NCBI GenBank assembly: GCA_007376295.1
Contig: VMGB01000001.1
Location: 349,969-413,968, forward strand
DNA from: Parcubacteria group bacterium Gr01-1014_13
GTDB taxonomy: Bacteria; Patescibacteriota; Patescibacteriia; Magasanikbacterales; GWA2-37-8
Direction of reading: 5' to 3'
Length of the DNA: 64,000 bases
Shown here: piece after piece, positions 13,849 through 52,832 of the stretch
Layout: each line of letters starts with the position of its first letter
Numbering within the stretch: the first letter of the stretch is position 1
Notes under the pieces: generated by a model
The model's database searches: none
Told to the model about the DNA's origin: nothing
What the model saw: only the letters and a program-made list of their open reading frames with translations
Made by a program: the position numbers and the translations under genes

Positions 13849-13899
13849 GTGACCTACATTTGGTATACCGACCAAAAAACACCAACAGAAAGGGATAAA

Positions 13900-14454
13900 A
13901 TGTCGATGTCGCTTTTGGTCCAGTATGAAGAGGACCTAGAGTCCAAACGGGAAGAAGTCTACTGCCAGCTCAAAAAGCTGGTGAAGAATCTGCCCATGTA
14001 CTTGAGCGCAACCACCAAGAGAGCGCTTCGGATTCACTTCGACAACTTCGACTTCGGGTATCAGTGGACCGAAGACGGCGAAGAGCTGATCCAGAAAGCT
14101 CGCATGGAACAGATGGCGACGGCAGAACGCTGGAAACGCTACGAAGAATTCGAACTGTTTGAAGACGAGCCCTGGATCGATGACCAGACGAAGAAGCTCT
14201 GGGGTTTCGCCGAGTACTGGGAGAACAAATTCGATCAGGAGACCATCAACGCCTGCAGGTTGAAGAAGGATCTCGCCTTTGAGTACGGAAGCATCCTCGT
14301 TCTGGAGAAGGCTTCTGGCAAAACCTACCATCGTAACGGTATCAAGCGCGATAAGACCGAGTTCTGGAACCGTCCCCAGCCGACTAGACGGCGACAGATC
14401 AAACTGCACAAAAAGATGCAGCGACGCCAGAACGACAATCAGCCTCAGGAGTAA
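13900..14454 (+). CDS. hypothetical protein of foreign base composition (acidic N-terminal half, basic C-terminal tail)
   Basis: 184 aa. By eye the coding region is ~50% GC, with CTG/GAG/AAG/CGC-rich codon use, against ~37% GC in its neighbours. Start assigned to the SD-preceded ATG at 13900 (the track ORF starts at 13849). No recognisable family. Confidence 0.55.
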   Translation: MSMSLLVQYEEDLESKREEVYCQLKKLVKNLPMYLSATTKRALRIHFDNFDFGYQWTEDGEELIQKARMEQMATAERWKRYEEFELFEDEPWIDDQTKKLWGFAEYWENKFDQETINACRLKKDLAFEYGSILVLEKASGKTYHRNGIKRDKTEFWNRPQPTRRRQIKLHKKMQRRQNDNQPQE

Positions 14455-36736: not shown

Positions 36737-36808
36737 ATAATTTCTTGCTTTTATTGCTTAGCTATTTAAGACATCCCATTATACGCTCTCTAAAGACAAC
36801 TGTCAATT

Positions 36809-37663: not shown

Positions 37664-37664
37664 A

Positions 37665-39878
37665 TTAAATTTTTTCTAATAAAAATACAGTATATTTATA
37701 GGTGTAGCTAGGACGGTTAAGAATTTTTTCTTTCACTTTTTTAAAAGTTGGATCAAGTGGCACGCTATCAAATCGTTTGATAACCTTATACCCTTCCGGC
37801 ACACCGGCTTCGGTATCAATTGTTTCTTCCGCACCCTCGGAGCCTGTCGAAAAAAACCAAATTTGCGCATGCGCAGGCAAGTCTACAGAACTCGGGTTAT
37901 TAAAATTAATTGGAATGGTGTTGCTAAAATATTTTTCTTTATAAAAATCATAAACCCCGCCAATTGCGTTGGGCGTAATAGCTAAATATTGGCCCGGCCG
38001 GGAATGATCGCGAACATACTGATACTGTTCAAAGGTTCGGAAATAACTGGGATTGAGATAATTTTTTGCCTGATAAAAGTTACAAAGACCACACACGGCT
38101 ACTATCCCCCACAACAAAAACAAAACGAATTGAATTTTATAGCGTAATTTACTTAAACATAACACGAATACCATAATCCATAACGGATAAGCCACAAAAC
38201 CAAATTTCGGATAAACTATAAAATTATAGCGGGGATCGGCTATATTCATAAAAAAAGTGTTCAGTAAAACCATCGACGCCGCTAGAAAAACAACAAATAA
38301 TTGTCCGGCTGTCCACATTTTTTTTCTAAACCCATAAACAAATCCTGCTATAACTGCGATTAAAACAGTGATACCGACTACAAAGACATAGTTCCAAGGG
38401 AAAATATTTTCCCCAAAGAAAAAACTGTAAATATGAAAAAATACCGCAAAAACAATGTGTTTCCATGAATTTGCCAGCAGATTAATATTGCTCCAACCGC
38501 CATCGCCTTGAATAACTATTCGGTGATATATCATCCATACTAACGGGCTCAACAAAATAGCTGCAACCAACTGACCGAAAAACCATTTTACAAATGGTAT
38601 TATCGGCCGGCGTCTAATTAAACCATACAAATAAACTAGGTTGGTAAAAAAGGCAACATAAAAAAAATGCGGATAGTCGGTATAACCAACCAAAACTAAC
38701 GCGGCTAAGTACCAATACCAGACATGTTTGCGGTATCCCTCAAACAGAAGCCGGTAAAAAAAATAAAATGTCAGCAAAGAAAAAAAGGCTGCTAAACTAT
38801 GATAGCGGGCCATTTGCGAAATCAAGACAAAGTATGACGAAAAAGCGGTAAAAAAAGCGGCTAGCAAAGCTACTTTTTTATTACCTACTACTAAATGAGT
38901 AAATTTATAAACCAAACAAACAATCCCCAATCCGGCTAAAATAGAAACCAGTCTGATTGTTAATTCTGTCCAAGGAAAAATCTTACTCGCTATAAGCACC
39001 AAAAAATAATAAAGCGGAGGATGATTATCTGGATGATTCCAATAGGAAACTATAAAACCGCCAACACTGTTTTTTAAATAATCTAAGACCGCCGTCTCAT
39101 CGCCCCAAAAAGTGCGATAAGCAACGCGGTATAACAATAAAAAAACCGATAAAGCCAATATGCCGACTAAATATTTATGCTTGCATGCCCAATGCCAAAA
39201 TTTATAAAAGCTATAAAAAATAATTTGTTTTAAAAATAGCCAGTACTCTTTTTTGTCCAATTTTGAAGTGCTAAATTTTCTAATTCTAAATTGAAAAGGC
39301 ACTTCTTTAACTCGCGCCTGTTTGCCCTTAATTAAAATTTCCAAAAGAATTTTATAACCCACGGTACTAAGCGGGACTCCGGTAATTACTTCCCGTTTCA
39401 AGAAAAAAAACCCGCTCAGCGGATCTTTAACGCCAGTTAAAAATCTGGTTGCCATCACTCCGGCTTCGGAAATAAGTTTACGCCACCACTTCCACTGTTC
39501 AACACTACTTCCCTTTTCAAATCTGCTACCTAAAACAATGTCGTGATCTTTTAGCAAACCGACCATTTCGTTTATATTTTTTGGGTCATGACTTAAATCT
39601 GCATCCATTACTCCTAGTAGCGGCCTGTCGGAATGGTTAAAACCTTCACGTACAGCGCTGCCTAATCCCAGCTTACCAGATCTATGTACCACTTTGATAG
39701 GAAATTGCTTGCTTAACTCTTCCGCTACCTGACCAGTTCCATCCGGCGAATTATCATCTACAACAATAAGTTCGGCATCAATTTCTGTCTTATTAATAAC
39801 GCTAAAAACTTCTTCCACTAAAAGTGGTAAATTTTTTGCTTCATTATAAGTTGGAATAATAATTGAAACCTTTAGCAT
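37665..39878 (-). CDS. fusion protein: polyprenol-phosphate sugar synthase-like GT2 (DPM1/GtrB/ArnC-like) + PMT/ArnT-like GT-C glycosyltransferase
   Basis: The N-terminal ~230 aa is a GT-A (IIIPTYNEAKNL, VVDDNSPDGT, DADLSHDP). It is followed by >10 TM helices carrying a DE motif (FWGDETAV) and an HPPL-like motif (NHPPLYYFL) in the first extracytoplasmic loop, as in PMT/ArnT GT-C enzymes. Confidence 0.65.
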   Translation of the reverse strand: MLKVSIIIPTYNEAKNLPLLVEEVFSVINKTEIDAELIVVDDNSPDGTGQVAEELSKQFPIKVVHRSGKLGLGSAVREGFNHSDRPLLGVMDADLSHDPKNINEMVGLLKDHDIVLGSRFEKGSSVEQWKWWRKLISEAGVMATRFLTGVKDPLSGFFFLKREVITGVPLSTVGYKILLEILIKGKQARVKEVPFQFRIRKFSTSKLDKKEYWLFLKQIIFYSFYKFWHWACKHKYLVGILALSVFLLLYRVAYRTFWGDETAVLDYLKNSVGGFIVSYWNHPDNHPPLYYFLVLIASKIFPWTELTIRLVSILAGLGIVCLVYKFTHLVVGNKKVALLAAFFTAFSSYFVLISQMARYHSLAAFFSLLTFYFFYRLLFEGYRKHVWYWYLAALVLVGYTDYPHFFYVAFFTNLVYLYGLIRRRPIIPFVKWFFGQLVAAILLSPLVWMIYHRIVIQGDGGWSNINLLANSWKHIVFAVFFHIYSFFFGENIFPWNYVFVVGITVLIAVIAGFVYGFRKKMWTAGQLFVVFLAASMVLLNTFFMNIADPRYNFIVYPKFGFVAYPLWIMVFVLCLSKLRYKIQFVLFLLWGIVAVCGLCNFYQAKNYLNPSYFRTFEQYQYVRDHSRPGQYLAITPNAIGGVYDFYKEKYFSNTIPINFNNPSSVDLPAHAQIWFFSTGSEGAEETIDTEAGVPEGYKVIKRFDSVPLDPTFKKVKEKILNRPSYTYKYTVFLLEKI

Positions 39879-41041
39879 AATGATCTGTAAATATCGGTTA
39901 CTTGATGAACATACTCTTCCACAGCAAATTTTTTAGTCTCTTTTTGACAGCCAGCCTTTAAGTGGCTATATACAACTTGGTCATCTAAACTAGCTAAAGC
40001 ATTGGCTAGCGCAATTGGATGAGCTGGCGGCACAATTAAACCAGCCTCCCCGACTACTTCCGGAATTGCGCCGCAATAGGTGGAAACAATGGGCACTTGC
40101 GCGCAAATAGCTTCGCCCAAAACATAGCCAAATTGTTCTTGCCAAGTTGGTCGAGGAATACTTCCTAAGATAAGACATTTTGCCCCTTTATAAAACGCTA
40201 ACATTTCGTCATATGGTAATTGACTGTGGAAAATAACCTTATCGGTTAAGCCCCAATCCTTCACAATTCTAACCATGTTCTGGAGTTCAGGACCCTTACC
40301 AACTATTACCAATAATTTTTTGCTTGAATCTAATAATTTGGAAAGGTATATCCTCCAACCATACAAAACATCGTAAACCCCTTTTTCTTTTACCAAACGA
40401 TTTACCATTAAATATACTTCTTTTCCGGCTAATTGAGGCGGAAAAATAGTTTTATCAATTACGGGAGCGGGTACGATTCCAGGAATAACAACCTGAATTT
40501 TTTTCTCTGGAACACCATAATCCAATAATAACCCCGCAGCATCATGGGAAACTGGCAAGAACTTATCAACTTCTTCTTTGTTGTAATCCATTATTTTTTT
40601 AAGTTGACGACGCCAATAAAGAGGTGGCATTTTAAAACCTGGCCAATAATTATATTCAAATCTGCCAAAACTGTTTTCCCAAACTGTAACGACTGTCTTT
40701 AATTTTTTATTTATTTTTTTAGCCATCACCGCCTGATACGTAAAGTAGTTATACAATTCACTAGTATGAACGATATCAAAACCTTCCAACTTTTTTTCCA
40801 AACCAAAAAACCTTTTATACTGACCGAAAAAATATTTATAAAAATTTTTAGACAAAAAATTATCGCTGCTGGTATGCATTTTTATCATTGGAAACGGCAA
40901 AGGCGATTGAACATAAACATTTTTACGCGCCGCAAAAACTGTTTGGACTATATCTTCGGGAAAATATTTCCAAGTCTTAGTTTCGTGATCTCCCAAACCA
41001 TCTCCGCGAATCTGAGCTACGGTAATTTTTTTCTGAGACAT
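39872..41041 (-). CDS. family-4 (GT-B) glycosyltransferase
   Basis: EQFGYVLGEAICAQVPIV EX7E motif. Confidence 0.75.
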   Translation of the reverse strand: MSQKKITVAQIRGDGLGDHETKTWKYFPEDIVQTVFAARKNVYVQSPLPFPMIKMHTSSDNFLSKNFYKYFFGQYKRFFGLEKKLEGFDIVHTSELYNYFTYQAVMAKKINKKLKTVVTVWENSFGRFEYNYWPGFKMPPLYWRRQLKKIMDYNKEEVDKFLPVSHDAAGLLLDYGVPEKKIQVVIPGIVPAPVIDKTIFPPQLAGKEVYLMVNRLVKEKGVYDVLYGWRIYLSKLLDSSKKLLVIVGKGPELQNMVRIVKDWGLTDKVIFHSQLPYDEMLAFYKGAKCLILGSIPRPTWQEQFGYVLGEAICAQVPIVSTYCGAIPEVVGEAGLIVPPAHPIALANALASLDDQVVYSHLKAGCQKETKKFAVEEYVHQVTDIYRSLC

Positions 41042-41045
41042 AAAA

Positions 41046-42245
41046 TTATTTCATTTCGTATTTAAAATACAACACATCGCCTGTGGTGCTAAACTGATCC
41101 CTATTTTTCCAAAAATAGTTCCATGTACAAGGAATGTTATTTTTACACAGATTCATGATTGTAAAAAGAGTGGCGTAACGAAGGGTGCTTTGGATAATAT
41201 AAGGAGTGATCATAGCTAGAACTACCATACCAATAGCGAGATGCTTAAACCAACGTCCTTTAATATAAATGTTATATATACCATAAGCAGCTATTGGCGC
41301 AAACAGCCAGGCGGAAATAAATACCGTCCTGGCTATAAACATTGGCCAGCTATAATATGATAGACTTGATAGTATAACTGCTAACAAATAAATTTTTATA
41401 TTCTTATCCAAATTCCGCCAATTTCTTATTAAGAAATATAAACCAATTGCAATAAATAGCCACAAAATATTATAGGTACTGGCATGAACACCAAACCATC
41501 TAAGCAAAGTAAAATTTTCCGCGACGTATGCCTTCCAATTTTCTGTAAACCAATATGCTGAACTGTAATTAACATCCTGCCCTCTGAAAAAATTGACAAT
41601 AATTGTCGCAAACGGAAAAATAGAAAATCTAATAAAGTTAAACACTCTTTCTTTCCAAGAAACTTTATCGAGTAAAAATAAAATACCGACAAATAATGCG
41701 CCCATACTGCCACTTTCCTTTGTCAAAAGCCCAAACGCAACGGCCATACCGCCTAAATAAAGCCATGACTTATTCTTATCTTCCCACCATCTCCAACCAG
41801 CATAAAGGGTCAGCACAAACCAAAAGTATCCGCCCATATCCTGAACTTGAGTAAGCGCATAACGCACCATTGCATATCCGGTCATGACAGTAATAGCGGA
41901 AACAAAACCGATAAAATTATTTTTAAAAACTCGCCTAATTAATCCGTATGTTAAAAGTACCAGGCCATAATAAAAAACTATATTGGTCGTAATCAAACTT
42001 TGCTCCGGCGACATAAAAAATAGCAACTTTGCGCTTACTACCGCATAAAAAGGATTCAGGTACCTGGCGGGGAAAAAGGAAACATCGTATCCTCTAAAAA
42101 ATTTGATCAAATCTATAAAGCCCGATGTGTCGTTATTGGGATGAAAACCATATAAAAAACTAAAAACAACCAAATTAAGCGTGGCCAAAAAAGCTAGTGA
42201 AAAAATGATTTTGTGTTTTTTTATTTTTTCAAATAAAGCCACCAT
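41046..42245 (-). CDS. polytopic membrane protein, possible GT-C-fold glycosyltransferase
   Basis: 399 aa, ~11 TM helices, aromatic-rich. Adjacent to a GtrB-like GT2. No clear DE motif. Confidence 0.4.
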   Translation of the reverse strand: MVALFEKIKKHKIIFSLAFLATLNLVVFSFLYGFHPNNDTSGFIDLIKFFRGYDVSFFPARYLNPFYAVVSAKLLFFMSPEQSLITTNIVFYYGLVLLTYGLIRRVFKNNFIGFVSAITVMTGYAMVRYALTQVQDMGGYFWFVLTLYAGWRWWEDKNKSWLYLGGMAVAFGLLTKESGSMGALFVGILFLLDKVSWKERVFNFIRFSIFPFATIIVNFFRGQDVNYSSAYWFTENWKAYVAENFTLLRWFGVHASTYNILWLFIAIGLYFLIRNWRNLDKNIKIYLLAVILSSLSYYSWPMFIARTVFISAWLFAPIAAYGIYNIYIKGRWFKHLAIGMVVLAMITPYIIQSTLRYATLFTIMNLCKNNIPCTWNYFWKNRDQFSTTGDVLYFKYEMK

Positions 42246-42260
42246 ACTTTTTATATAAAT

Positions 42261-42971
42261 TTAAAATGATTTAAAACGCCATTTTAAAATTGTCCACAAA
42301 ACAACTAGTCCATCCCGATAACGAATCTTTTTTCCTTCCGCAAAAGTTCTCGGATTATAATGAATAGGAACTTCTGCTATTTTTAACCCCTTTCTAAAAA
42401 GTTTGCACAGTAATTCGACATCGTAGGCAAAACCATCGGCTTGAATTGGCAAATCGACCATATACTGTCGTGGAATTATTTTGTAGCAAGCAAAAAAATC
42501 CGTCCCCTGTCTATTATACAACAAATTAATACTGGCTATAATAAGTTTATTCCCCAAATATGTGAGCGGGTGCGGGTGAGACCAGCCTGTATGAATATTT
42601 TTTAATTCACTAAACCTAGCTCTGGATCCCAAACTAATATCGGCTATATTTTTTTGTATTGGCTCAATCAAGGCTTTTAGGTCCTGTGGGTCATATTCTA
42701 AATCAGCATCTTGAATAGTAATGTAATCTCCCGTAGCCTGCGCTATCCCCAGCTTTACTGATGCCCCCTTACCGCTGTTTTTTTCTTTAAAAACAACTTT
42801 GTAGGTATCGCCCAAACCTTTTAAAATCTCCCGGGTTCCATCGGTTGAACAGTCATCAACAATAATGATTTCTTTTTGGCAATCATTTAAAAAAACTTGA
42901 TCTACCCTTTTTAATATTTCAAGAATTGTATCTTTTTCATTGTAAGCAGGGATAATTATGGAAAGTTTCAT
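42261..42971 (-). CDS. polyprenol-phosphate sugar transferase-like GT2 (GtrB/DPM1-like)
   Basis: IIIPAYNEKDTI, IIVDDCSTDGT, DADLEYDP. Confidence 0.75.
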   Translation of the reverse strand: MKLSIIIPAYNEKDTILEILKRVDQVFLNDCQKEIIIVDDCSTDGTREILKGLGDTYKVVFKEKNSGKGASVKLGIAQATGDYITIQDADLEYDPQDLKALIEPIQKNIADISLGSRARFSELKNIHTGWSHPHPLTYLGNKLIIASINLLYNRQGTDFFACYKIIPRQYMVDLPIQADGFAYDVELLCKLFRKGLKIAEVPIHYNPRTFAEGKKIRYRDGLVVLWTILKWRFKSF

Positions 42972-43894
42972 AGCCGTTTACTTATTTCTTCCATCATCTT
43001 TGTAACCTTGCTTCCAAATTCGATACCGGTTAGCGGACGGCTATTTGTATTTATACACTCAATAAAATGTTCTAATTCATTTCTCAGCGGTTCACGCGCT
43101 GTTACTATAGGAACAACAGGCTGATCAATTACACCGGATAAAGGCAAGGTCGATTTATTTCCGTCCCGTACCGGATATGAATTTTTAATCCATTTTAATT
43201 TTACTTCTTCACGATCATTAAACAAAACCATTCCTTTGTCTCCCACTAGTGTTACTTTACGCACTTTTTCCGGCCAATACCAAGATGTGATTAGGTGGGC
43301 TGTCAGACCGCTTTGAAACTTTACTGTAACACCGGTAAAATCATCTTTGGCGGAAGAATTAAACGAACGACTTGCTCCCGAAATTTTTACAATCTTTCCC
43401 GGAGAAAATAAATACTCCACTACCGCCAGATCGTGTATGCCGGCATCCATGAAACTTCCGACATCAGCTCTTAAAAGTCCGCAATAAAGATTTTCTCCCA
43501 TTAAGTACTTAACTGTTCCCAGTTCGCTAATACGATTCTTTATATATCGAATCGAATCGTTATAAATATATTGAAAACCAACCATGAAAACTAAACTTTT
43601 ATTTTTCTTTAATTCTTTTTCTACTTTTTTGGCTTCGGCAACGCTAAGCACCATCGGTTTTTCAACCAAAACATGCTTACCGGCGCGAAGAGATTTAAGT
43701 ATTATTTCGCAATGAGTAGAGGGCGGGGTAGCAATGACAACACAATCAATTTCTTTGTTATTTATAATTTCATCCGTTTCTGCAGATGTATTAGAGGTTT
43801 TGACTAACTTTACACCAGGAATTTCCGGCAACAAACGAACATAGTGTTTTCCAAAATGCCCCAATCCGATTATCCCAAATTGCAGAATTTTCAT
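42968..43894 (-). CDS. Gfo/Idh/MocA family NAD(P)-dependent oxidoreductase
   Basis: N-terminal Rossmann IIGLGHFG with EKP motif (VLVEKP) and a C-terminal alpha/beta domain. Confidence 0.7.
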   Translation of the reverse strand: MKILQFGIIGLGHFGKHYVRLLPEIPGVKLVKTSNTSAETDEIINNKEIDCVVIATPPSTHCEIILKSLRAGKHVLVEKPMVLSVAEAKKVEKELKKNKSLVFMVGFQYIYNDSIRYIKNRISELGTVKYLMGENLYCGLLRADVGSFMDAGIHDLAVVEYLFSPGKIVKISGASRSFNSSAKDDFTGVTVKFQSGLTAHLITSWYWPEKVRKVTLVGDKGMVLFNDREEVKLKWIKNSYPVRDGNKSTLPLSGVIDQPVVPIVTAREPLRNELEHFIECINTNSRPLTGIEFGSKVTKMMEEISKRL

Positions 43895-43909
43895 ACTGCA
43901 AAATTATAT

Positions 43910-46201
43910 TTATATTAAGATGTTTTTCATCCATTTATAGGAACGAGCTAATCCGTCTTGTAAACTGATCGATGGGTTATAGCCCACCATCGACTTGGCT
44001 TTGGACAAATCCGGACAGCGTCTGGAAGGTTCGTCTTGAGGGTAATTATCAGGATAATTAACTAAGTTTATTTCAACTTTTTTGTCTGGTACAACAGTTA
44101 CAAAAATTTCGGCTAGTGATTTCATATTAATTTCCGGACCATCGTTGCCAATATTAAACACTTCACCATTTTTGTCGGAAAGCAAAACTTTAAAGAAACC
44201 GATGATGGCGTCGGTAACATAACAAAATGTCCGTGTCTGATTTCCTTTATCGTGGACGGTTAGTGGCTTGCCTTCAATGGCCTGGCTTAAAAATGTTGGT
44301 ACGACTCTGTAGTCTTTAGCGCTCATCCCTGGACCATAGACATTAAAAGGACGGACAAATTTAACAGGAACTTGGTGTGTTTGGTAATAAGCCATGCACA
44401 AAGTTTCACCAAGACGCTTGGATTCATCATAGCAAGATCGTGGGCCGGTGGAAGAAACATTGCCCTTGTATGTCTCCGGAGTAGGAATAAACTTTGGATC
44501 CGGATCTCCGTAAATTTCACTGGAACTAAAATATAATACGCTGGTTACATTTTTCGCCAAAGCCAGCTTTAACATGTTATTTAAACCTAAAACTGTTCCT
44601 TCTATAGTTTCGATTGGGTATTTCTTGTAATAAACAGGTGAAGCAATGCCGGCGGCAGAAACAATATAATCAATCGGCATATCCAGAGAAATTGGCTCAC
44701 AGATGTTGTGCTGTTTAAACACAATATATTCGCTGTTCACTTCTTTGAGAAGATTGTTTTTCTTTCCGACAATATGATTGTCGAGCGAAAGTACTCGGCA
44801 AGGTGTTTTAAAATATTTTTTATTTAACAAGTCTATCGTCGCTGTTAGGTAGCTGCCGACAAATCCGGATCCGCCCGTAATCAAAACAGTTTTACCTTCG
44901 AGCGCACCCGCCACTTTCTCTATCCCTTTGGCAATAACATTTAAATCTTCTTCCACTACCCCACTAACAACTTGGGCAAATGGTACGGGGATAATAAAAT
45001 TCTCGAAATCAGAACATTTCTTAATAATAGAATCGGCAAAATTCCAAGCTAAAATTAGGATATAATCCGGAGGATTTTCTTTCAATTCAGTAGCGGCTTT
45101 TACCGGAATATGCGTACCCGGAGAATATAGCCCTTGTTTCCACACGCTATCATCAACAATATAATCCAAAGTTTCCGGTCCGATATTAAAGTAATTCAAC
45201 AAAGTACTGCCTTTTGCCGGAGCGCCATAACCAATAATTTTTTTGCCTTTAGATTTTAAGTCGCGCAAAAGTTCCAGCAAACGAGTTTTATTTTCACTAA
45301 TTTTGCCTTGAAAATTTAGAAAGGTTTCTATATCAGTCATCTTTCTTTCGTTTTCATGAGCGATAAATTTTTCTATGTTTGGCGATACAGTATGCTTCCC
45401 GCCTTTTCTCTGCACAAAGACACGCAGAGATCCACCGTGAGTATCTGTTTTTTCAACATCAAATACCTGCATTCCCAAACGATCAAATAAAGTACTGATT
45501 GTTTTTACAGTAAAATAAGAAAGGTGTTCATGATAAATAGTGTCAAATAAATTTTTCTCGATTAAATCCAATAAATAGTATGCTTCGATAACAAAAACAC
45601 CATCATCAGCCAATAAAGTTTTTACTCCTTCCACCACAGAATCCAAATCGTCTATGTGCGGAAAAACGCTGGTGGCTGTCATCAGAGATGCTTTGCCCTT
45701 TTCTTGCGCTATTTTACCAGCCACTTCCGGAGTAAAATATGCCGCCATTGTTTCTATACCATTTTCGGTTGCTCTCGCCGCAATATTTGCAGCCGGATCA
45801 ACGCCCATTATCTTTATACCCATTTCTTTATATGGACGCAGTAAAATTCCATCATTGCTGCCAATATCAACCACCAATGAATTGCTATCTAAAGCAAATC
45901 GCTGAGCCATTTCACTGGCAAAAGATTTGAAATGGGCCACAAAAACTGGTGAAGTGGATGAGCTATAGACATAATTACCAAAAAGAAGATCTGGAGATAC
46001 TACGTCTGTGAGCTGAACAAATGAACAGTCCTTACAAAAAGACAGCTCCAGCGGAAAGCTGGGCTCTGGTTTGTCTAGGTCTTCTGGTTTTAAGAAAGCA
46101 TTGGCCGGAGGCGTGCTTCCCAAACTTAATACTTTGGCTAAATTTGTTCCTTTACAGACCCTACAGTCATTTTTTGTTACACAGAGATCACCAAGAGACA
46201 T
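43910..46201 (-). CDS. fusion protein: TylCIII-like NDP-sugar C-methyltransferase + UXS/ArnA-like SDR (decarboxylase/4-ketoreductase family)
   Basis: N-terminal Cys4 zinc ribbon (CRVCKG...CKDCS), SAM motif VVDIGSNDGILL and a C-methyltransferase C-domain (residues ~1-430). The C-terminal ~320 aa carry TGGSGFVGS and the UXS-type CYDESKRLGETLC motif. Confidence 0.7.
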   Translation of the reverse strand: MSLGDLCVTKNDCRVCKGTNLAKVLSLGSTPPANAFLKPEDLDKPEPSFPLELSFCKDCSFVQLTDVVSPDLLFGNYVYSSSTSPVFVAHFKSFASEMAQRFALDSNSLVVDIGSNDGILLRPYKEMGIKIMGVDPAANIAARATENGIETMAAYFTPEVAGKIAQEKGKASLMTATSVFPHIDDLDSVVEGVKTLLADDGVFVIEAYYLLDLIEKNLFDTIYHEHLSYFTVKTISTLFDRLGMQVFDVEKTDTHGGSLRVFVQRKGGKHTVSPNIEKFIAHENERKMTDIETFLNFQGKISENKTRLLELLRDLKSKGKKIIGYGAPAKGSTLLNYFNIGPETLDYIVDDSVWKQGLYSPGTHIPVKAATELKENPPDYILILAWNFADSIIKKCSDFENFIIPVPFAQVVSGVVEEDLNVIAKGIEKVAGALEGKTVLITGGSGFVGSYLTATIDLLNKKYFKTPCRVLSLDNHIVGKKNNLLKEVNSEYIVFKQHNICEPISLDMPIDYIVSAAGIASPVYYKKYPIETIEGTVLGLNNMLKLALAKNVTSVLYFSSSEIYGDPDPKFIPTPETYKGNVSSTGPRSCYDESKRLGETLCMAYYQTHQVPVKFVRPFNVYGPGMSAKDYRVVPTFLSQAIEGKPLTVHDKGNQTRTFCYVTDAIIGFFKVLLSDKNGEVFNIGNDGPEINMKSLAEIFVTVVPDKKVEINLVNYPDNYPQDEPSRRCPDLSKAKSMVGYNPSISLQDGLARSYKWMKNILI

Positions 46202-46209
46202 ATTTTAAT

Positions 46210-46605
46210 TTATATAAGCTTCACACGAACAGTATCTTGTTCATAATCACCCTGACTTCTGGATTTTAAAGCAAAAACGAAACAAGTTGTATCTTCCAAA
46301 AACTTCATGGCATGAGCTACCATTGGTCGAGAAAAAACCATATCACCAGCTTTAACAATCTCTTTTTCCATCTTGGTTAAATCTGGGACACCATCAACTA
46401 GAGGTGCTTCATAATACTCCATGCTTCCGGTGAGTAAATAAACATGATGCCCGTCTTCTTTGTGGTAATGATTAGCGCGAATAGCACCCGGCTTAGAAGT
46501 CATCATTAGCATACTTTTAATAGTTGTCTGGCCATCATCGAGCAATTTGGTGATTCCACCTCTGTCATCAACAAATTCTGGAGCAATATTTCTTACGATT
46601 TGCAT
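46210..46605 (-). CDS. small cupin, WxcM/FdtA-like (NDP-4-keto-sugar 3,4-ketoisomerase family)
   Basis: 131 aa single cupin barrel with an HYHKEDGHH His cluster. Size and context fit the FdtA/WxcM N-domain family rather than RmlC. Confidence 0.5.
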   Translation of the reverse strand: MQIVRNIAPEFVDDRGGITKLLDDGQTTIKSMLMMTSKPGAIRANHYHKEDGHHVYLLTGSMEYYEAPLVDGVPDLTKMEKEIVKAGDMVFSRPMVAHAMKFLEDTTCFVFALKSRSQGDYEQDTVRVKLI

Positions 46606-46680
46606 ACTAAAAATGAGTTAATTTAATGAGATTAGTTGATAAAATTATATTATACCAGCCAAACAAAGTCAACTGGGATA

Positions 46681-46710
46681 TTGACTTTTTACCCAAAAAC
46701 AGCCTATAAT
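46681..46710 (+). promoter_or_regulatory. sigma70-type promoter (TTGACT-18-TATAAT) for the radical SAM gene
   Basis: TTGACTttttacccaaaaacagccTATAAT. SD AAGGAGT lies 7 nt before the ATG at 46740. Confidence 0.55.
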
Positions 46711-46739
46711 TCAGCCAGACTGATAACAAGGAGTATATA

Positions 46740-48272
46740 ATGTCGAGACTACAACCAAAAATTCTTTTGGTTTACCCGCCTAACCAGCTGATGGCTATTG
46801 AAATGCCCCGGCCGGACGGTTCGCTCGGCCCATTGTACCTCAGCGGCGCTCTTCGCGACGCAGGGTTTGATGTTGATCTACTGGACGCTTCTGTCGGTAC
46901 AAACGAAGATAAGCTCAGTGATACGTTCCACAACCGAGTTCTCTTGCCGAACGGTCTAACCCGTATCGGCATGACCCCGGATCGCCTGCGGGAATACTTC
47001 GCCAAAGGCAACTTTGATATCGTAGGTATTAGCAGTAACTTCACCCCCCAGACCAAAATGGCTCTGGAGGTGGCAGGCATTGCTAAAGAAGTAAACCCCG
47101 AAACTCTAGTTATTGCGGGTGGTGTCAATGCCCGCGCACTTTCGGATCGTTTCCTAGCGAGTCGTTTGGTGGACGTGGTCATCCTCACCGAAGGTGAAAA
47201 AATCATCGTCGACCTGGCTCGTGCCTGGCAACAAAACACGTCGTTTGACAATGTAAATGGTATTAAATACTTGCGCACGGGATTCCCGGTGACTAGGCCA
47301 GTAACTCCGGAATTAATCTCGGATAATCTGGACAGTCTACCGATTCCAGCCTGGGATCTTCTACCACATGCCAAATACGACGAAATCAATAGTCCGCATG
47401 GTAGTATCATTAGCAGTCAGAAGCGGCGTTACGCCCCTATCATGACCTCGCGCGGCTGTCCGTTCCGCTGCGCATACTGCCACATTAGTGAAGAAAAAGA
47501 GGCCGGCTCCTTCACAGGCGATATCGGCTCATTGCGACTCAAATCGATTGATCGCGTTATGGAGGAACTAAAAAAATTACTCGCGCTTGGAGTAACCCAC
47601 CTCTATATCGAAGACGACAGTCTTCTCGCCAAAAAAGCTCGCATCAAAGATCTTTTTCATCGCCTTACCGGCCTTGGACTGAAGATTAGCGGTGTGAACG
47701 GCGTAAATCTAGTCCACTTTGGTATCCCGACTACAAACGGACGGCTAAAACCAGACGTTGGGTATCTGGAAATCCTAAAGGGTGCTGGATTTGATGAGAT
47801 TGTCTTCCCGGTAGAATCCGGAAATCAACGGATTCTTGATAAATACGCTACGTCTAAACTGCCTCTGGATAAACTTGATGTCATCCAACTCGTGCGCGAT
47901 GCGGTGGAAGTCGGAATTACCTGTCCAGTCAATATGATGGTTGGGTTCCCCGACGAAACTAAAGCCGAGATGAATGAGAGTGTTGAGCTGGCAAAGAAAC
48001 TCATCGATGCTGGTGCTCGATACGTAACGTTCTTTATTCCTATTCCGTTCCCCGGAAGCAAGCTATACCGTATGGCTATCGACGGGGGCCACTTGTCAGC
48101 TGATTTCGATCCGGACACGATGAATTGGAAAAATGCTGTCATGCAAAATACGACGGTGCCACCGGAGGAAGTGGTGGAATTCCGCGATTGGGCGTGGGAA
48201 ACAGTAAATAGCGAAGACTATAAGAAGAAACGTAAAGAAAGAGAAATTGGCGATCAGCGCTTTGCAAAATAA
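46740..48272 (+). CDS. B12-binding radical SAM enzyme (class B, cobalamin-dependent radical SAM methylase family)
   Basis: 510 aa with an N-terminal B12-binding-like Rossmann domain and a CxxxCxxC cluster motif (SRGCPFRCAYCH). The ORF is clearly GC-enriched (~50%) relative to flanking genes. Confidence 0.85.
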   Translation: MSRLQPKILLVYPPNQLMAIEMPRPDGSLGPLYLSGALRDAGFDVDLLDASVGTNEDKLSDTFHNRVLLPNGLTRIGMTPDRLREYFAKGNFDIVGISSNFTPQTKMALEVAGIAKEVNPETLVIAGGVNARALSDRFLASRLVDVVILTEGEKIIVDLARAWQQNTSFDNVNGIKYLRTGFPVTRPVTPELISDNLDSLPIPAWDLLPHAKYDEINSPHGSIISSQKRRYAPIMTSRGCPFRCAYCHISEEKEAGSFTGDIGSLRLKSIDRVMEELKKLLALGVTHLYIEDDSLLAKKARIKDLFHRLTGLGLKISGVNGVNLVHFGIPTTNGRLKPDVGYLEILKGAGFDEIVFPVESGNQRILDKYATSKLPLDKLDVIQLVRDAVEVGITCPVNMMVGFPDETKAEMNESVELAKKLIDAGARYVTFFIPIPFPGSKLYRMAIDGGHLSADFDPDTMNWKNAVMQNTTVPPEEVVEFRDWAWETVNSEDYKKKRKEREIGDQRFAK

Positions 48273-48279
48273 CAATACC

Positions 48280-48311
48280 CGAGATAGAACCTCCCTATCT
48301 CGTTTTTTTTT
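48280..48311 (+). terminator. rho-independent terminator (CGAGATAG...CTATCTCG + T9) for the radical SAM gene
   Basis: The hairpin overlaps the stop codon of the convergent GT2 gene and is followed by T9. Confidence 0.65.
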
Positions 48312-49128
48312 GACTTTTTTCTATCTGCCAAACTTGCCAATAAAGAGAGAAGTAATAAATATAATTATAAAAACAGAGTTTCCATCCCGTCCAACTGGCC
48401 CATAATCCGTTTTTAAATTGGCCGAGAAAATCTTTAATCGGGTTAACGATTAAATAAAACACGATATGTGTTCTTACTTTTTTTGCGTAAGTAATCCATT
48501 TCTCTGGGGTCGTATTAAAACATTCATAAGTTACTAATTCCGGAAAAAAATATCTGGCATGAATCGGAGACCACATTTCTCTTTTTCTTTTAACGGTGGC
48601 TCGCGAGATATTGTTATAAAGCGGGCGGTGTCGCAGATATATTTCTAACTTTTCAGTTTTACCGTCAACCTCTCCCATCGCATGAGGAATACCGACAAAA
48701 CGCATAGCCGATTTTTTGAAAAGACAGGCTTTTTGAATTCCTTTGCAGCGTAAAGTTTTTTTGCCGTCCCACATCTCCCAATTAAATATAAATCTATTAA
48801 CGCCATTTTGATTATTTACTTTTTCCCTGATTAACGGAAAATCTTTTTCTTCCAGAGATTCATCGGCATCCATAAGCAGGATCCAGTCTCCCACTGCGGT
48901 ATTAAAACAAAAAACAAAATGCAGAGTAGAAATCCCGGCATGCGGCCGCACAAAAACTTTGTCGGTATATTCTCTAGCTATTTCCAAAGTTTTGTCTTTG
49001 CATTCGCCATCATGTACCACAATAATTTCATCCACTAAACCTTTAATACTGTCCAAGCATTTTCGCACAATTTTTTCTTCGTTGTACACGATAAGACAGG
49101 CAGAAATTTTTTGCTTGCTATTTTCCAT
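48295..49128 (-). CDS. family-2 glycosyltransferase
   Basis: CLIVYNEEKIV, VVHDGECKDKT, MDADE. Confidence 0.7.
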   Translation of the reverse strand: MENSKQKISACLIVYNEEKIVRKCLDSIKGLVDEIIVVHDGECKDKTLEIAREYTDKVFVRPHAGISTLHFVFCFNTAVGDWILLMDADESLEEKDFPLIREKVNNQNGVNRFIFNWEMWDGKKTLRCKGIQKACLFKKSAMRFVGIPHAMGEVDGKTEKLEIYLRHRPLYNNISRATVKRKREMWSPIHARYFFPELVTYECFNTTPEKWITYAKKVRTHIVFYLIVNPIKDFLGQFKNGLWASWTGWKLCFYNYIYYFSLYWQVWQIEKSQKKTR

Positions 49129-49150: not shown

Positions 49151-49873
49151 TTACAGCTGCTGCATTGCTTTGCTAGCGTCATTGATAAATTGTACCACAG
49201 TTTCTTTGGTACGGGCAGAGAGAAGACATTTGGCGAGTACTTCCGGAGGAATAGTGAGAATGTGGGCTCCGCTTTTACCCCACAAATCTACGTTTTCCGG
49301 ACTGCGTACAGACCCAACGATAATTTCAATGTTTTTATAGTTATGAAAATCAAGCCATTGTCTGACATCTTCGAGGACTTTTTGCGCTTGCTCTACACCA
49401 TGTTCTTCTGAAATTCTACCGGCAAAAATACTTATATTATGAATTTTTCTTGCGCTAGTCTTCGCCATACCTGCATTGATTGCTTTGGCGGCAAGTATTG
49501 CCTGATTAAAGGTCATCATTGCTGTCACATTTACAGAAATACCTTCGCTAACCAGTCTGTAAATAGCAGGTAAAAGAGAATTACCATTGCGATCAGTAAT
49601 AGTTACTTTTACGGTGATGTTTTCTGCCCAGGTATTGAATTTTCTTGCCTGATTAAGAACCTGTTCTAAATCATCGCTTGTCACCTCAACGCTTAGTGGC
49701 TGGGGCGCAATTAAACGAGCGATTTCGATCAATCTTTGTTTCATTCCTTCTTCTCCGCCGGAAACGCCGGATTTTAAACAAATACTTGGGTTGGTAGTAA
49801 CTCCATCACAAATCCCCCAGCTTACATATTTTTCAATTTCCTTGATGTCAGCGCTGTCGATAAATATTTTCAT
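49151..49873 (-). CDS. tal: transaldolase / fructose-6-phosphate aldolase family (short type)
   Basis: 240 aa TIM-barrel Tal/Fsa signature (FIDSADIKEI...GVTTNPS). Confidence 0.75.
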   Translation of the reverse strand: MKIFIDSADIKEIEKYVSWGICDGVTTNPSICLKSGVSGGEEGMKQRLIEIARLIAPQPLSVEVTSDDLEQVLNQARKFNTWAENITVKVTITDRNGNSLLPAIYRLVSEGISVNVTAMMTFNQAILAAKAINAGMAKTSARKIHNISIFAGRISEEHGVEQAQKVLEDVRQWLDFHNYKNIEIIVGSVRSPENVDLWGKSGAHILTIPPEVLAKCLLSARTKETVVQFINDASKAMQQL

Positions 49874-49892: not shown

Positions 49893-50429
49893 TTAATTGA
49901 TAATTTCCAAAATAGAAAGTAAATCTTGTATTCGTGAGTCTGGTTCTAAATGATCATTACGGCCATCAGAGACAATCACAGACCGAACCCCGGCAGCTCT
50001 GGCAGCCAGAAGATCATTATCCGTGTCACCTATCATATATGATGATGGCAAATGAATATTCCATTTTTTTGCCGCATCCAGTAGCATGCCTGGGAGTGGT
50101 TTTTTGCAGAGACAGCCGTCATTACGACGATGAAAGCAGATAAAAATATCATCAAATGAAAGATTTTTTACCTCAGCCATTATGCGCTCGTGTTGTTCCT
50201 GGGGTAATTTACCATATGCTATATCCGGTTGGTTTGTAACTAGGATACGAAGATATCCTAGCTTACCAACAGCTTCCAATACTTCCTTAATCCCTGACTT
50301 GAAACGGAATTCACTGTGATGATGTGGCGCAGTAAAACGAACCTTCTTTTCTCCAACAAAAAAATTTTCGCCCCGATCTATAACTTCATTCACAACTCCA
50401 TCGCGGTCAAAAAAGACAGCCTTTACCAT
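49893..50429 (-). CDS. gmhB: D-glycero-D-manno-heptose 1,7-bisphosphate phosphatase (HAD-IIIA)
   Basis: FFDRDGVVN, NQPDIAYG, and a CxC zinc motif (CFHRRNDGCLCKKP). Confidence 0.75.
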   Translation of the reverse strand: MVKAVFFDRDGVVNEVIDRGENFFVGEKKVRFTAPHHHSEFRFKSGIKEVLEAVGKLGYLRILVTNQPDIAYGKLPQEQHERIMAEVKNLSFDDIFICFHRRNDGCLCKKPLPGMLLDAAKKWNIHLPSSYMIGDTDNDLLAARAAGVRSVIVSDGRNDHLEPDSRIQDLLSILEIIN

Positions 50430-50435
50430 AATATT

Positions 50436-51020
50436 TTAATAACCACTTTGCTGTTTTAACAAATTTATCAATAAATGGTTAACTACTAATTGATAATCTT
50501 CAGTGTGAGGAGTTACCATGGATTCTTCGATTTTTGGCACAACTAAACAAGCGTCGGCAACCTGAGCAGCGACACCAGTCTCCCTGCCAACCACAGCCAG
50601 AATTCTTGCACCCACAACTTTGGCATATTCCATAGCCTTGACTAAATTTCCAGAAATATTTTGAGTTCCTCCGTTAACAGAGAAAATAAATAGGCAGTCT
50701 TTAGCAGTAAGATTATGCATTTCCAGTTGACGTTTAAAAACAGAATCCCAGCCTTCGTCGTTGGCTAACGCGCTAAACAAGCCCACGTTATCGGTAAGAC
50801 AAAAAGTAGAGATATTGGCAATTTTATTAAAGTCGTTGGTAGCGTGGGAAGCCGAAGCTCCTCCTCCACCTATACCCAAAAAGAAAACTCTGCCTTTGAG
50901 TTCGCGTGTAATAGATAAAATATCAGCCATTTTTTCCAAACGTTCTCGACTGCACTCATTGGCAATTTGAGCTGTTCTTTTTAGGTACTGATCTATAAAA
51001 TTGTGCTTGTCCATAACCAT
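50436..51020 (-). CDS. gmhA: phosphoheptose isomerase (SIS domain)
   Basis: RVFFLGIGGGGASASHATNDF and SVNGGT. Confidence 0.8.
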   Translation of the reverse strand: MVMDKHNFIDQYLKRTAQIANECSRERLEKMADILSITRELKGRVFFLGIGGGGASASHATNDFNKIANISTFCLTDNVGLFSALANDEGWDSVFKRQLEMHNLTAKDCLFIFSVNGGTQNISGNLVKAMEYAKVVGARILAVVGRETGVAAQVADACLVVPKIEESMVTPHTEDYQLVVNHLLINLLKQQSGY

Positions 51021-51115: not shown

Positions 51116-52111
51116 CTAGTCAAAATCAACCATTGTCTTTGCCCCTTCTTTTTCAAATCTAAAGGGCATTTCTTTCAAACCGTTGGTTTTCATCGCTTCA
51201 CGCACGCTTTTTCTCTCTTTATCTCCAGGACAATAAAATACCAAAAATCCACCGCCGCCGGCTCCCATAATTTTGCCACCCAAAGACCCATTTTCTTTGG
51301 CCAAAGCATAAAGCCTGTCAATATTTGGATCAGACATTTTTGTAGACATTGTTTTTTTGATTCGCCAATGCTCATCCATTAATCTACCAAAATTATCCAA
51401 ATTACCACCTTGAATAGAATTTTTAATTTCCATTCCAATCTCTTTAATCTGTAATAGCGATTTAGTCACATCACTTTCTTTTTTCTCAGCCGCAGCGCTC
51501 TGCTCGCCCAAAATTACCATAGCACTTCGAGAAATACCCGTATAAAATAATAGTAACTTATTTTGCAAATCTTCTACTGTTTCACGAGCAATTGCCGCAT
51601 CAGATACCTGCACGGCTCCATTTTTATCAATATTCATTATCGTAAAACCGCCATAGGCTGCCAAATATTGGTCCTGCTTGCCCACAGGCTTATGTAGTAA
51701 GTCAATTTCGATATGACAAGCTAGTTCTGCCAGTTCTTGAACTCCGGAACCCCTACGGGTTAATGTCTGCAATCCTTTTAAAAGTCCAACCAAATAAGAA
51801 CCAGACGAACCCATCCCTGTACCTGCCGGCACATCGGCCGTGGAAGCGATTTCGATTTGGTCTTTAATGCCATAATATTCCAAAGCAGCCCGAGCCAAAT
51901 CATGCTCCAGTTGCGCGGTATTTTCTACAATCTCAATACGAGAATATTTTACACGAACAAGCGAATCCAAAATCGGTCGATTGATACTTATATACATGTA
52001 CTTATCAATAGCGGCACTAAATACAAAACCGCCATGCTGTTTATAAAAAGCAGGCAAATCCGTACCGCCTCCGCCAAGCGGGATCCTAAATGGGGTGCGA
52101 GTTAAAATCAC
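51116..52111 (-). CDS. hddA: GHMP-family sugar kinase, D-glycero-D-manno-heptose 7-phosphate kinase-like
   Basis: GHMP motifs (PLGGGGTDLP; PAGTGMGSSGS). Embedded between gmhA and a heptose-1-P nucleotidyltransferase. Confidence 0.7.
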   Translation of the reverse strand: MILTRTPFRIPLGGGGTDLPAFYKQHGGFVFSAAIDKYMYISINRPILDSLVRVKYSRIEIVENTAQLEHDLARAALEYYGIKDQIEIASTADVPAGTGMGSSGSYLVGLLKGLQTLTRRGSGVQELAELACHIEIDLLHKPVGKQDQYLAAYGGFTIMNIDKNGAVQVSDAAIARETVEDLQNKLLLFYTGISRSAMVILGEQSAAAEKKESDVTKSLLQIKEIGMEIKNSIQGGNLDNFGRLMDEHWRIKKTMSTKMSDPNIDRLYALAKENGSLGGKIMGAGGGGFLVFYCPGDKERKSVREAMKTNGLKEMPFRFEKEGAKTMVDFD

Positions 52112-52115
52112 AATT

Positions 52116-52832
52116 TTATTTAATATTAGTAAAAAAATCTTGGGTCCGATGATAACCTTCTATGTTATCACAACCAAAAACATACTCTTCTTGGCTAAAT
52201 TGGTACGTGCCAATTTTAATATTGTCCCTCAAAAGCAATGGAAAAACATCCCAACCGAAATCATATTTCTGCCCCTCGGGAATATATTTAAAAATCTCCG
52301 GTTCAAGAACATATGATCCCGCGCTCACCAAACTGCTCATTTCATCGGCATTTTCCATGAACTCTTTGACGCTTCTATCAGAATTAAGCAAAACCCGACC
52401 CCGACCGATACCACTATTTTTATTTTTAGTCATGTCGTGAATAGCCATCGTACAAATAGTTTCATTTTTCTGATGAGCTAACAAAAGATTTTCTAAATTA
52501 CAATTGGTAACATTATCACCATACAAAAGAAAAAATGGTTCGGTAAATTCTTTTTCCACTTTCTTCACCGCCCCTGCGCTACCTAAGAGCTCTTCTTCTC
52601 TGGAATAAACAATGGACACGCCGAATTTTGAGCCATCTTGAAAATAATCCATTATTTGATCGGCTTTATAGCAAACATTGATAATTATTTCCCGCACGCC
52701 ATATTGGCGCGCCAAATCAATATTGTGCTCTAAAATGGGCTTGCCGTTAATCTCAACCAAAACCTTAGGAATATTATCAGTAAGCGGACGGAGTCTAGTA
52801 CCCTCTCCGGCCGCCAAAATCATGGCTTTCAT
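52116..52832 (-). CDS. hddC: D-glycero-D-manno-heptose 1-phosphate guanylyltransferase-like nucleotidyltransferase
   Basis: ILAAGEGTRLRPLTDNIPK, 238 aa with no LbH tail. Context with gmhA, hddA and gmhB. Confidence 0.65.
   Translation of the reverse strand: MKAMILAAGEGTRLRPLTDNIPKVLVEINGKPILEHNIDLARQYGVREIIINVCYKADQIMDYFQDGSKFGVSIVYSREEELLGSAGAVKKVEKEFTEPFFLLYGDNVTNCNLENLLLAHQKNETICTMAIHDMTKNKNSGIGRGRVLLNSDRSVKEFMENADEMSSLVSAGSYVLEPEIFKYIPEGQKYDFGWDVFPLLLRDNIKIGTYQFSQEEYVFGCDNIEGYHRTQDFFTNIK

Follow-up and report, generated by a model that had tools for sequence, protein, structure and literature searches.

A conserved B12-binding-domain radical SAM gene beside heptose-type sugar genes in a Parcubacteria group bacterium

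The window analyzed here is a stretch of 64,000 nucleotides from the genome of Parcubacteria group bacterium Gr01-1014_13. It carries on the plus strand a gene for a radical S-adenosylmethionine (SAM) protein with a B12-binding domain, termed the rSAM gene. The gene is flanked on both sides by glycan genes on the minus strand. Orthologues were found beside the same set of heptose-type genes in other bacteria and in archaea. The rSAM gene is an old and conserved partner of a heptose (seven-carbon sugar) pathway in ultra-small bacteria and archaea, where its product probably modifies a cell-surface sugar. The features of the gene and its immediate borders are as follows.

46740..48272, plus strand: coding sequence of the rSAM gene, 510 amino acids (aa), B12-binding-domain radical SAM protein
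46824..47216, plus strand: B12-binding (Rossmann) domain, aa 29-159 (Pfam PF02310, 56.8 bits against a cut-off of 32.1, E 2.5e-15)
47445..47993, plus strand: radical SAM core, aa 236-418 (Pfam PF04055, 63 bits, E 5e-17)
46681..46710, plus strand: promoter-like site TTGACT-18-TATAAT of the rSAM gene (11/12 match)
46644..46672, minus strand: divergent promoter-like site TTGACT-17-TATAAT of a cupin/C-methyltransferase unit (11/12 match)
46728..46733, plus strand: Shine-Dalgarno sequence AAGGAG, 6 nt before the ATG and conserved in relatives
48280..48311, plus strand: intrinsic-terminator-like hairpin (48280-48302, 8-bp stem, 7-nt loop) followed by T9

A 510-aa open reading frame (ORF) with a B12-binding domain and a CxxxCxxC radical SAM core had been predicted from the sequence by eye. 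This was borne out by the Pfam search proposed at the time, in which both PF02310 and PF04055 matched, and by the invariance of the cysteines. The cluster motif is C240-x3-C244-x2-C247 (nt 47457-47480) and its three cysteines are invariant in 28 orthologues. The loop SNFTPQT of the B12 domain (aa 99-105; S99-N100-F101-T102-P103-Q104-T105) is also conserved, with F101, T102 and Q104 invariant and N100 present in 24/28 orthologues. The start was placed at the ATG at 46740. Residues Y12, P13, N15, Q16 and L17 are invariant in the orthologues and lie upstream of M18, where the public gene calls begin, giving a protein of 493 aa (call in L081:429-1910). As the 17 dropped residues hold these five invariant positions and follow a strong Shine-Dalgarno sequence, the public annotation is truncated (46740-46790). 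A database look-up with the exact 510-aa sequence gave no match because the public calls start at M18.

The AlphaFold model of the protein had a pLDDT of 88 and a pTM of 0.89. The top solved folds found with Foldseek were TsrM, QCMT, AprD4, OxsB and TokK (E 1e-21 to 1e-16, TM 0.6-0.65, 15-20% identity), all of which are class-B-type enzymes. TsrM was the best match (E 1.5e-21). The B12 Rossmann domain, the CxxxCxxC core and the overall fold are thus all those of the class-B radical SAM group. The product is a class-B-type radical SAM protein without a close characterized relative.

The expression signals named in the original prediction were all found, namely a TTGACT-18-TATAAT promoter, an AAGGAG Shine-Dalgarno sequence and a hairpin terminator overlapping the stop codon of the convergent GT2 (family 2 glycosyltransferase) gene. 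This stop codon (48295-48297) lies inside the hairpin, which folds with an energy of -10.3 kcal/mol (z -4.7). The stem is identical in the related loci L001, L002, L005 and L006 and the loop is variable. The -35 and -10 elements of the rSAM promoter are retained in L001, L002, L005, L006 and L007, and the promoter and Shine-Dalgarno sequence are recognizable even in a Peregrinibacteria locus at 71% identity. The 134-bp spacer upstream of the gene holds two back-to-back 11/12 promoter-like sites. The second of these, on the minus strand (46672-46644), serves the unit of cupin, C-methyltransferase-SDR, GFO, GT2 and PMT genes. It is conserved in L001, L002 and L006 and faces the opposite way, which places the rSAM gene between two minus-strand transcription units and not within one operon. 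An insertion into an operon had been proposed, which does not fit with the position of the gene at the boundary of two units with divergent promoter-like sites. Standing between two units of glycan genes, the rSAM gene is transcribed as a monocistronic unit whose promoter and terminator are conserved. An Rfam scan of the window identified only an L10 leader and a tRNA and no riboswitch.

Homologues of the rSAM protein were numerous. More than 1200 matches were obtained, the top 120 were all at least 55% identical and those with a named host were almost all from Patescibacteria. When the library was clustered at 50% identity there were about two dozen clusters at 360-850 bits, below which thousands of paralogues form a continuum at around 200 bits. 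This drop in score sharply delimits the orthologous group. A scan of one genome per species yielded 70 loci, about 55 of which held orthologues at 48% identity or more. Their hosts belong to many Patescibacteria classes, to the Pace- and Woesearchaeota and to the Pelagibacteraceae, with single Dehalococcoidales and Nitrospirae bins.

The gene neighborhoods were compared by clustering all neighboring ORFs and counting each family over the 55 loci. These counts are lower bounds because many contigs are truncated. A short GT2 of the polyprenyl-phosphate type was found near the rSAM gene in 41/55 loci, a transaldolase/FSA in 40/55, a nucleotidyltransferase in 40/55, a GHMP kinase in 38/55, a SIS isomerase in 35/55 and a HAD phosphatase in 34/55. 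Oxidoreductases were less frequent, with the GFO/IDH family in 17 loci and the DAO type in 14, and SDR proteins were found in 33. The module usually also includes a multi-pass membrane (GT-C-like) transferase. Further recurring neighbors were GtrA-type proteins, a membrane protein of 8-10 helices without a Pfam match, and NUDIX hydrolases. The order that recurs among the loci is nucleotidyltransferase, rSAM, GT2, an optional GFO and DAO oxidoreductase pair, HAD, GHMP, SIS and transaldolase. In 19 loci the nucleotidyltransferase gene lies immediately upstream of the rSAM gene. The commonest gene immediately downstream is the GT2, with 14 loci. At the loci of paralogues (27-30% identity) the module is absent. 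The original prediction had linked the enzyme to the nucleotide sugar made by its neighbors, and this link finds far wider support than proposed, as the same heptose-type gene set stands beside orthologues in about 55 loci and several phyla.

Variants of the module were also found. In L024, L030, L040 and L044 a PfkB kinase and a Cof-type HAD protein take the place of the GHMP kinase and the transaldolase is kept. A gene of the GT9 (heptosyltransferase) family follows the rSAM gene in these four loci and on the short contig L042, and in the four the HAD, PfkB and transaldolase genes also lie after it. The variant replaces the GHMP-kinase route in the style of an ADP-heptose pathway. In some orthologues the N-terminus bears a hexapeptide/LbH domain of the type that sugar nucleotidyltransferases have at their C-terminus. 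The GFO/IDH/MocA protein is fused to a DAO-type FAD oxidoreductase in 9 loci. Such a 650-aa fusion lies just downstream of the rSAM and GT2 genes in L020 (12526-14481) and also occurs in L010, L015, L018, L052, L056 and L057. Elsewhere the two halves are encoded side by side as separate genes, and the window has the GFO half only (42968-43894).

Orthologues at 48-53% identity were found in Pelagibacteraceae/SAR11-like loci (L034, L036, L037) and in DPANN archaea (L039, L041, L043, L045, L059, L060). They have the same heptose-type neighbors, fall on one branch of the neighbor-joining (NJ) tree and are host-like in GC content at third codon positions (GC3). The shared neighbors and single branch imply that the whole module was transferred between domains.

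The genes on either side of the rSAM gene in the window are listed below, first those beyond its terminator and then those of the divergent unit. Bit scores are from NCBIfam unless stated.

48295..49128, minus strand: GT2 glycosyltransferase, convergent with the rSAM gene (Pfam PF00535)
49151..49873, minus strand: transaldolase/FSA-family protein, for supply of sedoheptulose-7-phosphate or another keto-sugar phosphate (Pfam PF00923, E 4e-40)
49893..50429, minus strand: HAD-IIIA phosphatase, GmhB-like (best model GmhB, 98 bits against a cut-off of 178)
50436..51020, minus strand: SIS-domain isomerase, GmhA-like (best model gmhA, 54.8 bits against 209)
51116..52111, minus strand: GHMP sugar kinase, HddA-like (best model HddA, 168 bits against 600)
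52116..52832, minus strand: sugar-1-phosphate nucleotidyltransferase (HddC model ranked fifth, 105 bits against 300)
46210..46605, minus strand: small cupin protein, encoded at the head of the divergent unit (Pfam Cupin_2, 27.3 bits against 27.2)
43910..46201, minus strand: sugar C-methyltransferase (Methyltransf_13/14) fused to an SDR epimerase/dehydratase (Pfam)
42968..43894, minus strand: GFO/IDH/MocA oxidoreductase (Pfam)
42261..42971, minus strand: short GT2 of the polyprenyl-phosphate-sugar synthase type, AglJ/PpgS/DPM1-like (Pfam, NCBIfam)
37665..42245, minus strand: PMT_2-type (GT-C) membrane glycosyltransferase, GT4 and GT2-PMT fusion (Pfam), likely users of a lipid-linked sugar

The Pfam domain types of the isomerase, kinase, phosphatase and nucleotidyltransferase are all present beside the rSAM gene. 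The gene had been placed between an FdtA-like cupin block and GDP-heptose genes. The flanks are indeed the cupin/C-methyltransferase-SDR block and heptose-type genes, but the cupin, a Cupin_2 match at threshold, is at most a candidate FdtA. Within the window 58/61 long ORFs are on the minus strand. The long plus-strand ORFs are 9947-12256 (769 aa, no Pfam match), 33301-34437 (GT4) and the rSAM gene. A second, free-standing C-methyltransferase-type protein for a nucleoside diphosphate (NDP) sugar (Methyltransf_13/14) is encoded at 60541-61749; together with the fusion at 43910-46201 it indicates that SAM-dependent, non-radical sugar C-methylation is also present in the region. In a close relative the glycan cluster encodes a second and different B12-binding radical SAM protein of 488 aa (L002:11337-12803, L003:5372-6838). 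Its gene adjoins a methyltransferase and a GT1 and has no counterpart in the window.

The known roles of class-B radical SAM enzymes are in the chemistry of antibiotics, bacteriochlorophyll, hopanoids, archaeal lipids and methyl-coenzyme-M reductase. The rSAM protein was compared to the curated families in NCBIfam and to solved structures. Scores and cut-offs were 139.5 and 575 bits for Sden_1168, 95.9 and 481 for BchE (TIGR02026), 92.3 and 578 for HpnJ (TIGR03471) and 49.4 and 500 for AprD4 (NF033070), with the MJ_1487 model fourth at 85 bits. The sequence-profile matches in the PDB were OxsB (43 bits), AprD4 (42), QCMT (36), TokK (34) and CysS (32). The SD_1168/Sden_1168 P-methyltransferase (NF038361) was the best curated match, aligning over aa 5-453 with an E value of 1.3e-40 and the same two-domain architecture. 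That family is found in phosphonate/phosphinate contexts, whereas the rSAM protein is found in heptose-type sugar clusters, and a score of 139.5 bits does not make it a member.

TsrM (PDB 6WTE/6WTF) and QCMT/MgmA (9CCB), the best structural matches (Foldseek E 1.5e-21 and 5.5e-19, TM about 0.6), share with it the class-I arrangement of a B12 Rossmann domain and a radical SAM barrel. They differ in sequence (15-17% identity) and in substrate, which is tryptophan for TsrM and a protein glutamine for QCMT, and the chemistry of TsrM is non-radical. OxsB (PDB 5UL2-4) and AprD4 (6FD2), the best PDB profile matches, have sugar-like substrates, namely the ring of a deoxyadenosine phosphate for OxsB and paromamine for AprD4. 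Their identity to the rSAM protein is 17-20%; OxsB is a protein of 744 aa with extra N-terminal and helix-bundle domains and AprD4 does not use cobalamin. A B12 domain can thus occur in a protein that lacks the cofactor, and there is no diagnostic sequence motif for cobalamin binding.

In function, the closest analogy to the reaction proposed below is with GenK, GenD1/GntE, Fms7 and MoeK5. These have a B12 domain and a radical SAM core, methylate unactivated sugar carbons and are listed as Csp3 methyltransferases in a 2026 review of class-B enzymes (PMC12931638). GenK-type enzymes belong to actinomycete antibiotic pathways and act on aminoglycoside or moenomycin intermediates, whereas the rSAM family is found in envelope glycan clusters of the Candidate Phyla Radiation (CPR), DPANN and SAR11. 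Most characterized class-B enzymes are methyltransferases, and the review makes no mention of a heptose, glycan or polysaccharide substrate (PMC12931638). Full-text literature searches found no paper linking radical SAM/B12 enzymes with heptose pathways, capsular polysaccharide or Patescibacteria.

The known heptose pathway (GmhA/HddA/GmhB/HddC) and the Lmb pathway have the same five enzyme types as the rSAM neighbors. A dedicated transaldolase also belongs to the Lmb pathway. Neither pathway is known to include a radical SAM enzyme.

The rSAM gene is best read as a member of an uncharacterized class-B radical SAM orthologous group dedicated to a heptose-type surface sugar, with C-methylation as the likeliest chemistry. 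The probability of this reading is put at roughly 0.55. Judged from the gene context, it is likely that the enzyme acts on a heptose-type sugar. C-methylation itself, argued from what is usual among class-B enzymes, is given close to an even chance. We infer cobalamin use, the sugar substrate and methyl transfer, and the reaction may run as follows. The [4Fe-4S] cluster would cleave SAM, and the resulting 5'-deoxyadenosyl radical would take a hydrogen from an unactivated carbon of an activated heptose, which could be a sugar phosphate, an NDP-sugar or a polyprenyl-phosphate sugar. Methylcobalamin would then donate a methyl group to give a C-methyl heptose. The modified sugar would pass to polyprenyl phosphate and, through GT-C-type transferases such as the PMT_2 proteins of the window, be exported to an acceptor on the cell surface.

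Several points weigh against this reading. The host groups are not known to make cobalamin, so the supply of the cofactor is uncertain. A literature search on cobalamin auxotrophy in CPR bacteria returned nothing usable. For the neighboring genes, all matches to the GmhA, HddA, GmhB and HddC models stay under the equivalog cut-offs. The five enzyme types beside the rSAM gene also serve in lincomycin biosynthesis, where their product is GDP-octose. The sugar may thus be either a heptose or some higher sugar, and "heptose-type" is the safe wording. No curated family model in NCBIfam reaches its cut-off for the rSAM protein. Relatives that do not methylate, BchE and HpnJ among the curated families and OxsB and AprD4 among the structures, score about as well as the methylases. 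In a profile alignment Asn100 aligns with Asn186 of OxsB, a lower-axial residue, and a hydrophilic lower-axial face has been tied to enzymes without radical methylation (PMC12931638). The hint from Asn100 is a weak one because it comes from a profile alignment and not from a superposition.

Some of these points lend weight to the same family and the same heptose module serving a different chemistry, which is possible but less likely. The reaction could be dehydration of a 1,2-diol as in AprD4, with a reductase acting next, a contraction of the ring or rearrangement as in OxsB or HpnJ, or an epimerization. Cobalamin might serve as an electron sink or be absent from the enzyme altogether. OxsB and AprD4 as the top PDB profile matches, BchE and HpnJ as the second and third NCBIfam matches, the alignment of Asn100 and hosts that are not known to make cobalamin are consistent with this. 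The recurrent GFO/IDH and DAO-type oxidoreductases and SDR proteins could also process a keto product, although no oxidoreductase is universal in the core module. The differences between the PDB scores are small, however. The best fold match, TsrM, is a methylase and the best curated family is a methyltransferase. PF02310 also scores well above its cut-off, which is not what would be expected of a degenerate domain. C-methylation of a heptose-type sugar is retained as the likeliest chemistry.

The composition of the rSAM gene had been noted as atypical at about 50% GC, and computed values confirmed this. The gene has a GC content of 0.492 and a GC3 of 0.507. Across the 60 other long ORFs the averages are 0.387 ± 0.021 and 0.347 ± 0.033, with a z of 4.9 for each measure. 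The codon adaptation index of the gene, calculated as adaptation to the rest of the window, is 0.60 compared to 0.74 ± 0.026 and is the lowest in the window. Recoding the protein with window-average codon usage gave a GC content of 0.420. Approximately 30% of the GC excess is thus due to amino-acid composition and 70% to synonymous choice (residual +0.073, z 6.7). The contrast is weaker at strictly four-fold sites (0.538 against 0.393 ± 0.058, z 2.5). CGC, CTC, CTG and CCG are enriched. A bias to CTG, GAG and CGC had been proposed, which is correct for CTG and CGC but not for GAG (26% against 24%). The flanking genes have a GC content of 35-41%, a wider range than the 36-38% first estimated.

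The housekeeping genes of the window, frr, pyrH, ftsW, rplJ with its L10 leader and the ribosomal protein genes, have the same host-like GC content of approximately 39%. The rSAM gene is therefore atypical for the genome and not just for the glycan island, and an AT-rich glycan island was ruled out as the cause of the contrast. High expression was ruled out as a cause of the GC-ending codons as the L10 and L7/L12 genes have a GC3 of 0.29-0.32. Amino-acid composition is not a sufficient cause, given its share of the excess. Constraint by an antisense gene (ORF 46772-47410, minus strand) was also ruled out because the antisense frames vary in frame and extent among relatives. A second plus-strand GC-rich patch (51-54% GC) is located at 13850-14500, between the rplJ leader and the ORF at 14905-15447. 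It contains an ORF (13849..14454) encoding 201 aa with no Pfam match. Only three homologues of this product were found in a collection of 5.8 billion proteins, one of them 100% identical and from Parcubacteria group bacterium Gr01-1014_13.

The locus was compared to its closest relatives. Over window positions 33910-48700, which include both junctions of the rSAM gene, the sequence is 100% identical to that of an independent Logan assembly (L081). The junctions are therefore real and an assembly chimera was ruled out. The gene is found at the same site and in the same orientation, divergent from the same cupin gene, in L001 (92% aa identity), L002 (87%) and L006 (81%), where it is again bordered by the cupin gene on one side and by the downstream glycan genes on the other. 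In L005/L009 (84%) it lies within a rearranged heptose cluster. In all of these close relatives the gene has a GC content of 47-51% in surroundings of 37-39%. The rSAM sequences of this clade are monophyletic in the NJ tree.

At four-fold sites the raw difference of the rSAM gene of the window is 0.385 from that of L001 and 0.507 from that of L006, and the flanking genes give 0.33-0.62. The gene has diverged together with its flanks over approximately 0.5-1 synonymous substitutions per site, so the common ancestor already carried it in a GC-rich form. Insertion scars are absent around the gene, where short repeats are at chance level and there are no flanking direct repeats and no integrase. 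As to targets for mobile elements, the sole tRNA of the window is at 18.7 kb and the neighbors of the rSAM gene are glycan genes. The atypical composition of a recent islet is thus seen here, but not its insertion scars or its absence from the site in relatives. The GC-rich codon usage is a legacy older than the divergence of the species group and does not point to recent acquisition.

The persistence of the GC excess over this time is only partly explained. Changes at four-fold sites were polarized for the window/L001 pair only, because sites toward more distant relatives are saturated, and the confidence intervals are wide. In the window lineage the rSAM gene has undergone 17 GC>AT changes from 62 GC sites and 7 AT>GC changes from 40 AT sites. 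The implied equilibrium GC content at four-fold sites (GC4) is 0.39 (bootstrap 0.17-0.55), compared to a current value of 0.54 and to 0.31 (0.24-0.39) for the flanks. This suggests that an inherited GC excess is slowly decaying toward the host composition in the window lineage rather than being maintained by a gene-specific process.

There are observations that do not sit well with simple decay. The estimate rests on 24 substitutions and its interval almost reaches the current GC4. In 42/52 loci the rSAM gene has a higher GC3 than the genes that flank it (mean +0.078, Wilcoxon 7e-8), while the excess of the GHMP, nucleotidyltransferase, HAD, GT2 and SDR genes over their flanks is approximately zero. 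The rSAM excess recurs in many unrelated lineages, a pattern that a single old transfer leaves unexplained, and in several of them it amounts to +0.15 to +0.24. The rSAM tree also disagrees with the flanks. L006 has 81% identity to the window in the rSAM protein and 86-92% in most flanking proteins, so that within the window clade it is the closest in most flanking genes and the most distant in the rSAM gene. L002 has 87% identity in the rSAM protein and 82% in the C-methyltransferase/SDR fusion.

It could be that the GC excess is actively renewed, either by exchange of a promoter-gene-terminator cassette from GC-richer alleles among lineages and phages or by a gene-specific force favoring GC-ending codons. 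The widespread GC3 excess, the conflicting trees, the existence of phage-borne copies and the balance of strong-to-weak and weak-to-strong changes in the L001 lineage would agree with this. Recurrent exchange of the cassette is thus a realistic alternative, though the less likely one. The substitution bias of the gene in the window lineage resembles that of its flanks, and the DPANN and SAR11 copies show no GC3 excess and are fully host-like. The ribosomal protein genes of the window have a low GC3 (0.29-0.33), so GC-ending codons are not preferred in highly expressed genes, and a GC-rich donor lineage was not identified.

Phage-like contigs also bear copies of the gene. A Logan contig (SRR22388126; L079:10001-17836) encodes a 641-aa orthologue with an N-terminal hexapeptide/LbH fusion at the end of a row of sugar-modification genes. 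Genes for a DUF5681 protein, for a large terminase subunit (phrog_2, E 6e-19) and for a portal of the SU10 type come directly after it on the same strand. The orthologue is a phage or prophage copy of the rSAM gene. A single orthologue was found in IMG/VR (contig L080, 49% identity). The INPHARED phage collection contained no orthologue and only a 24%-identical Streptomyces phage protein.

Two further explanations carry little weight. It is very unlikely that the enzyme is unrelated to sugars and modifies a lipid, peptide or RNA from a chance position in a variable glycan region. Class-B enzymes do act on lipids, peptides and cofactors and glycan regions do gather unrelated genes, but the gene is repeatedly adjacent to the nucleotidyltransferase and heptose genes across phyla and in both domains. 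This adjacency survives the replacement of the kinase type, LbH-domain fusions occur and the paralogue loci lack the module. Recent capture from a GC-richer donor and insertion on the opposite strand into a pre-existing operon, as originally predicted, is scarcely credible even though the gene is a strong outlier in composition and codon usage, is one of only three long plus-strand ORFs and belongs to a family that moves between domains and occurs on phage-like contigs, since it has no flanking direct repeats, integrase or tRNA, stands at a divergent-promoter boundary with regulatory signals conserved in relatives, matches its flanks in synonymous divergence and, in the synteny comparison named beforehand as a refuting one, occupies the same position and orientation in relatives down to 81% identity, which contradicts a recent insertion.

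The locus does not record a strange genome event. A five-sigma anomaly in GC content and codon usage can persist through approximately 0.5-1 synonymous substitutions per site and so does not by itself date a transfer. What is new is a conserved biological context, the heptose-type pathway, for an uncharacterized class-B subfamily, and with it a widespread and unstudied association of an enzyme with a pathway that is directly testable in vitro. The cell surfaces of the carriers are essentially unstudied and the carriers depend on partners for cofactors. More tentatively, the orthologous group may be the first radical SAM enzyme of the cobalamin type to act in the primary synthesis of cell-envelope glycans, making a new C-methylated or radical-rearranged higher sugar that coats the ultra-small, host- or community-dependent cells of CPR, DPANN and SAR11, moving between them in part on phages and tying their surface chemistry to scavenged vitamin B12. 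If a heptose is C-methylated or rearranged by this enzyme, the product would be a new sugar and the substrate a new class for class-B enzymes. It would provide a testable biochemical handle on the envelopes of CPR and DPANN organisms and would suggest B12 dependence in lineages thought to need little B12.

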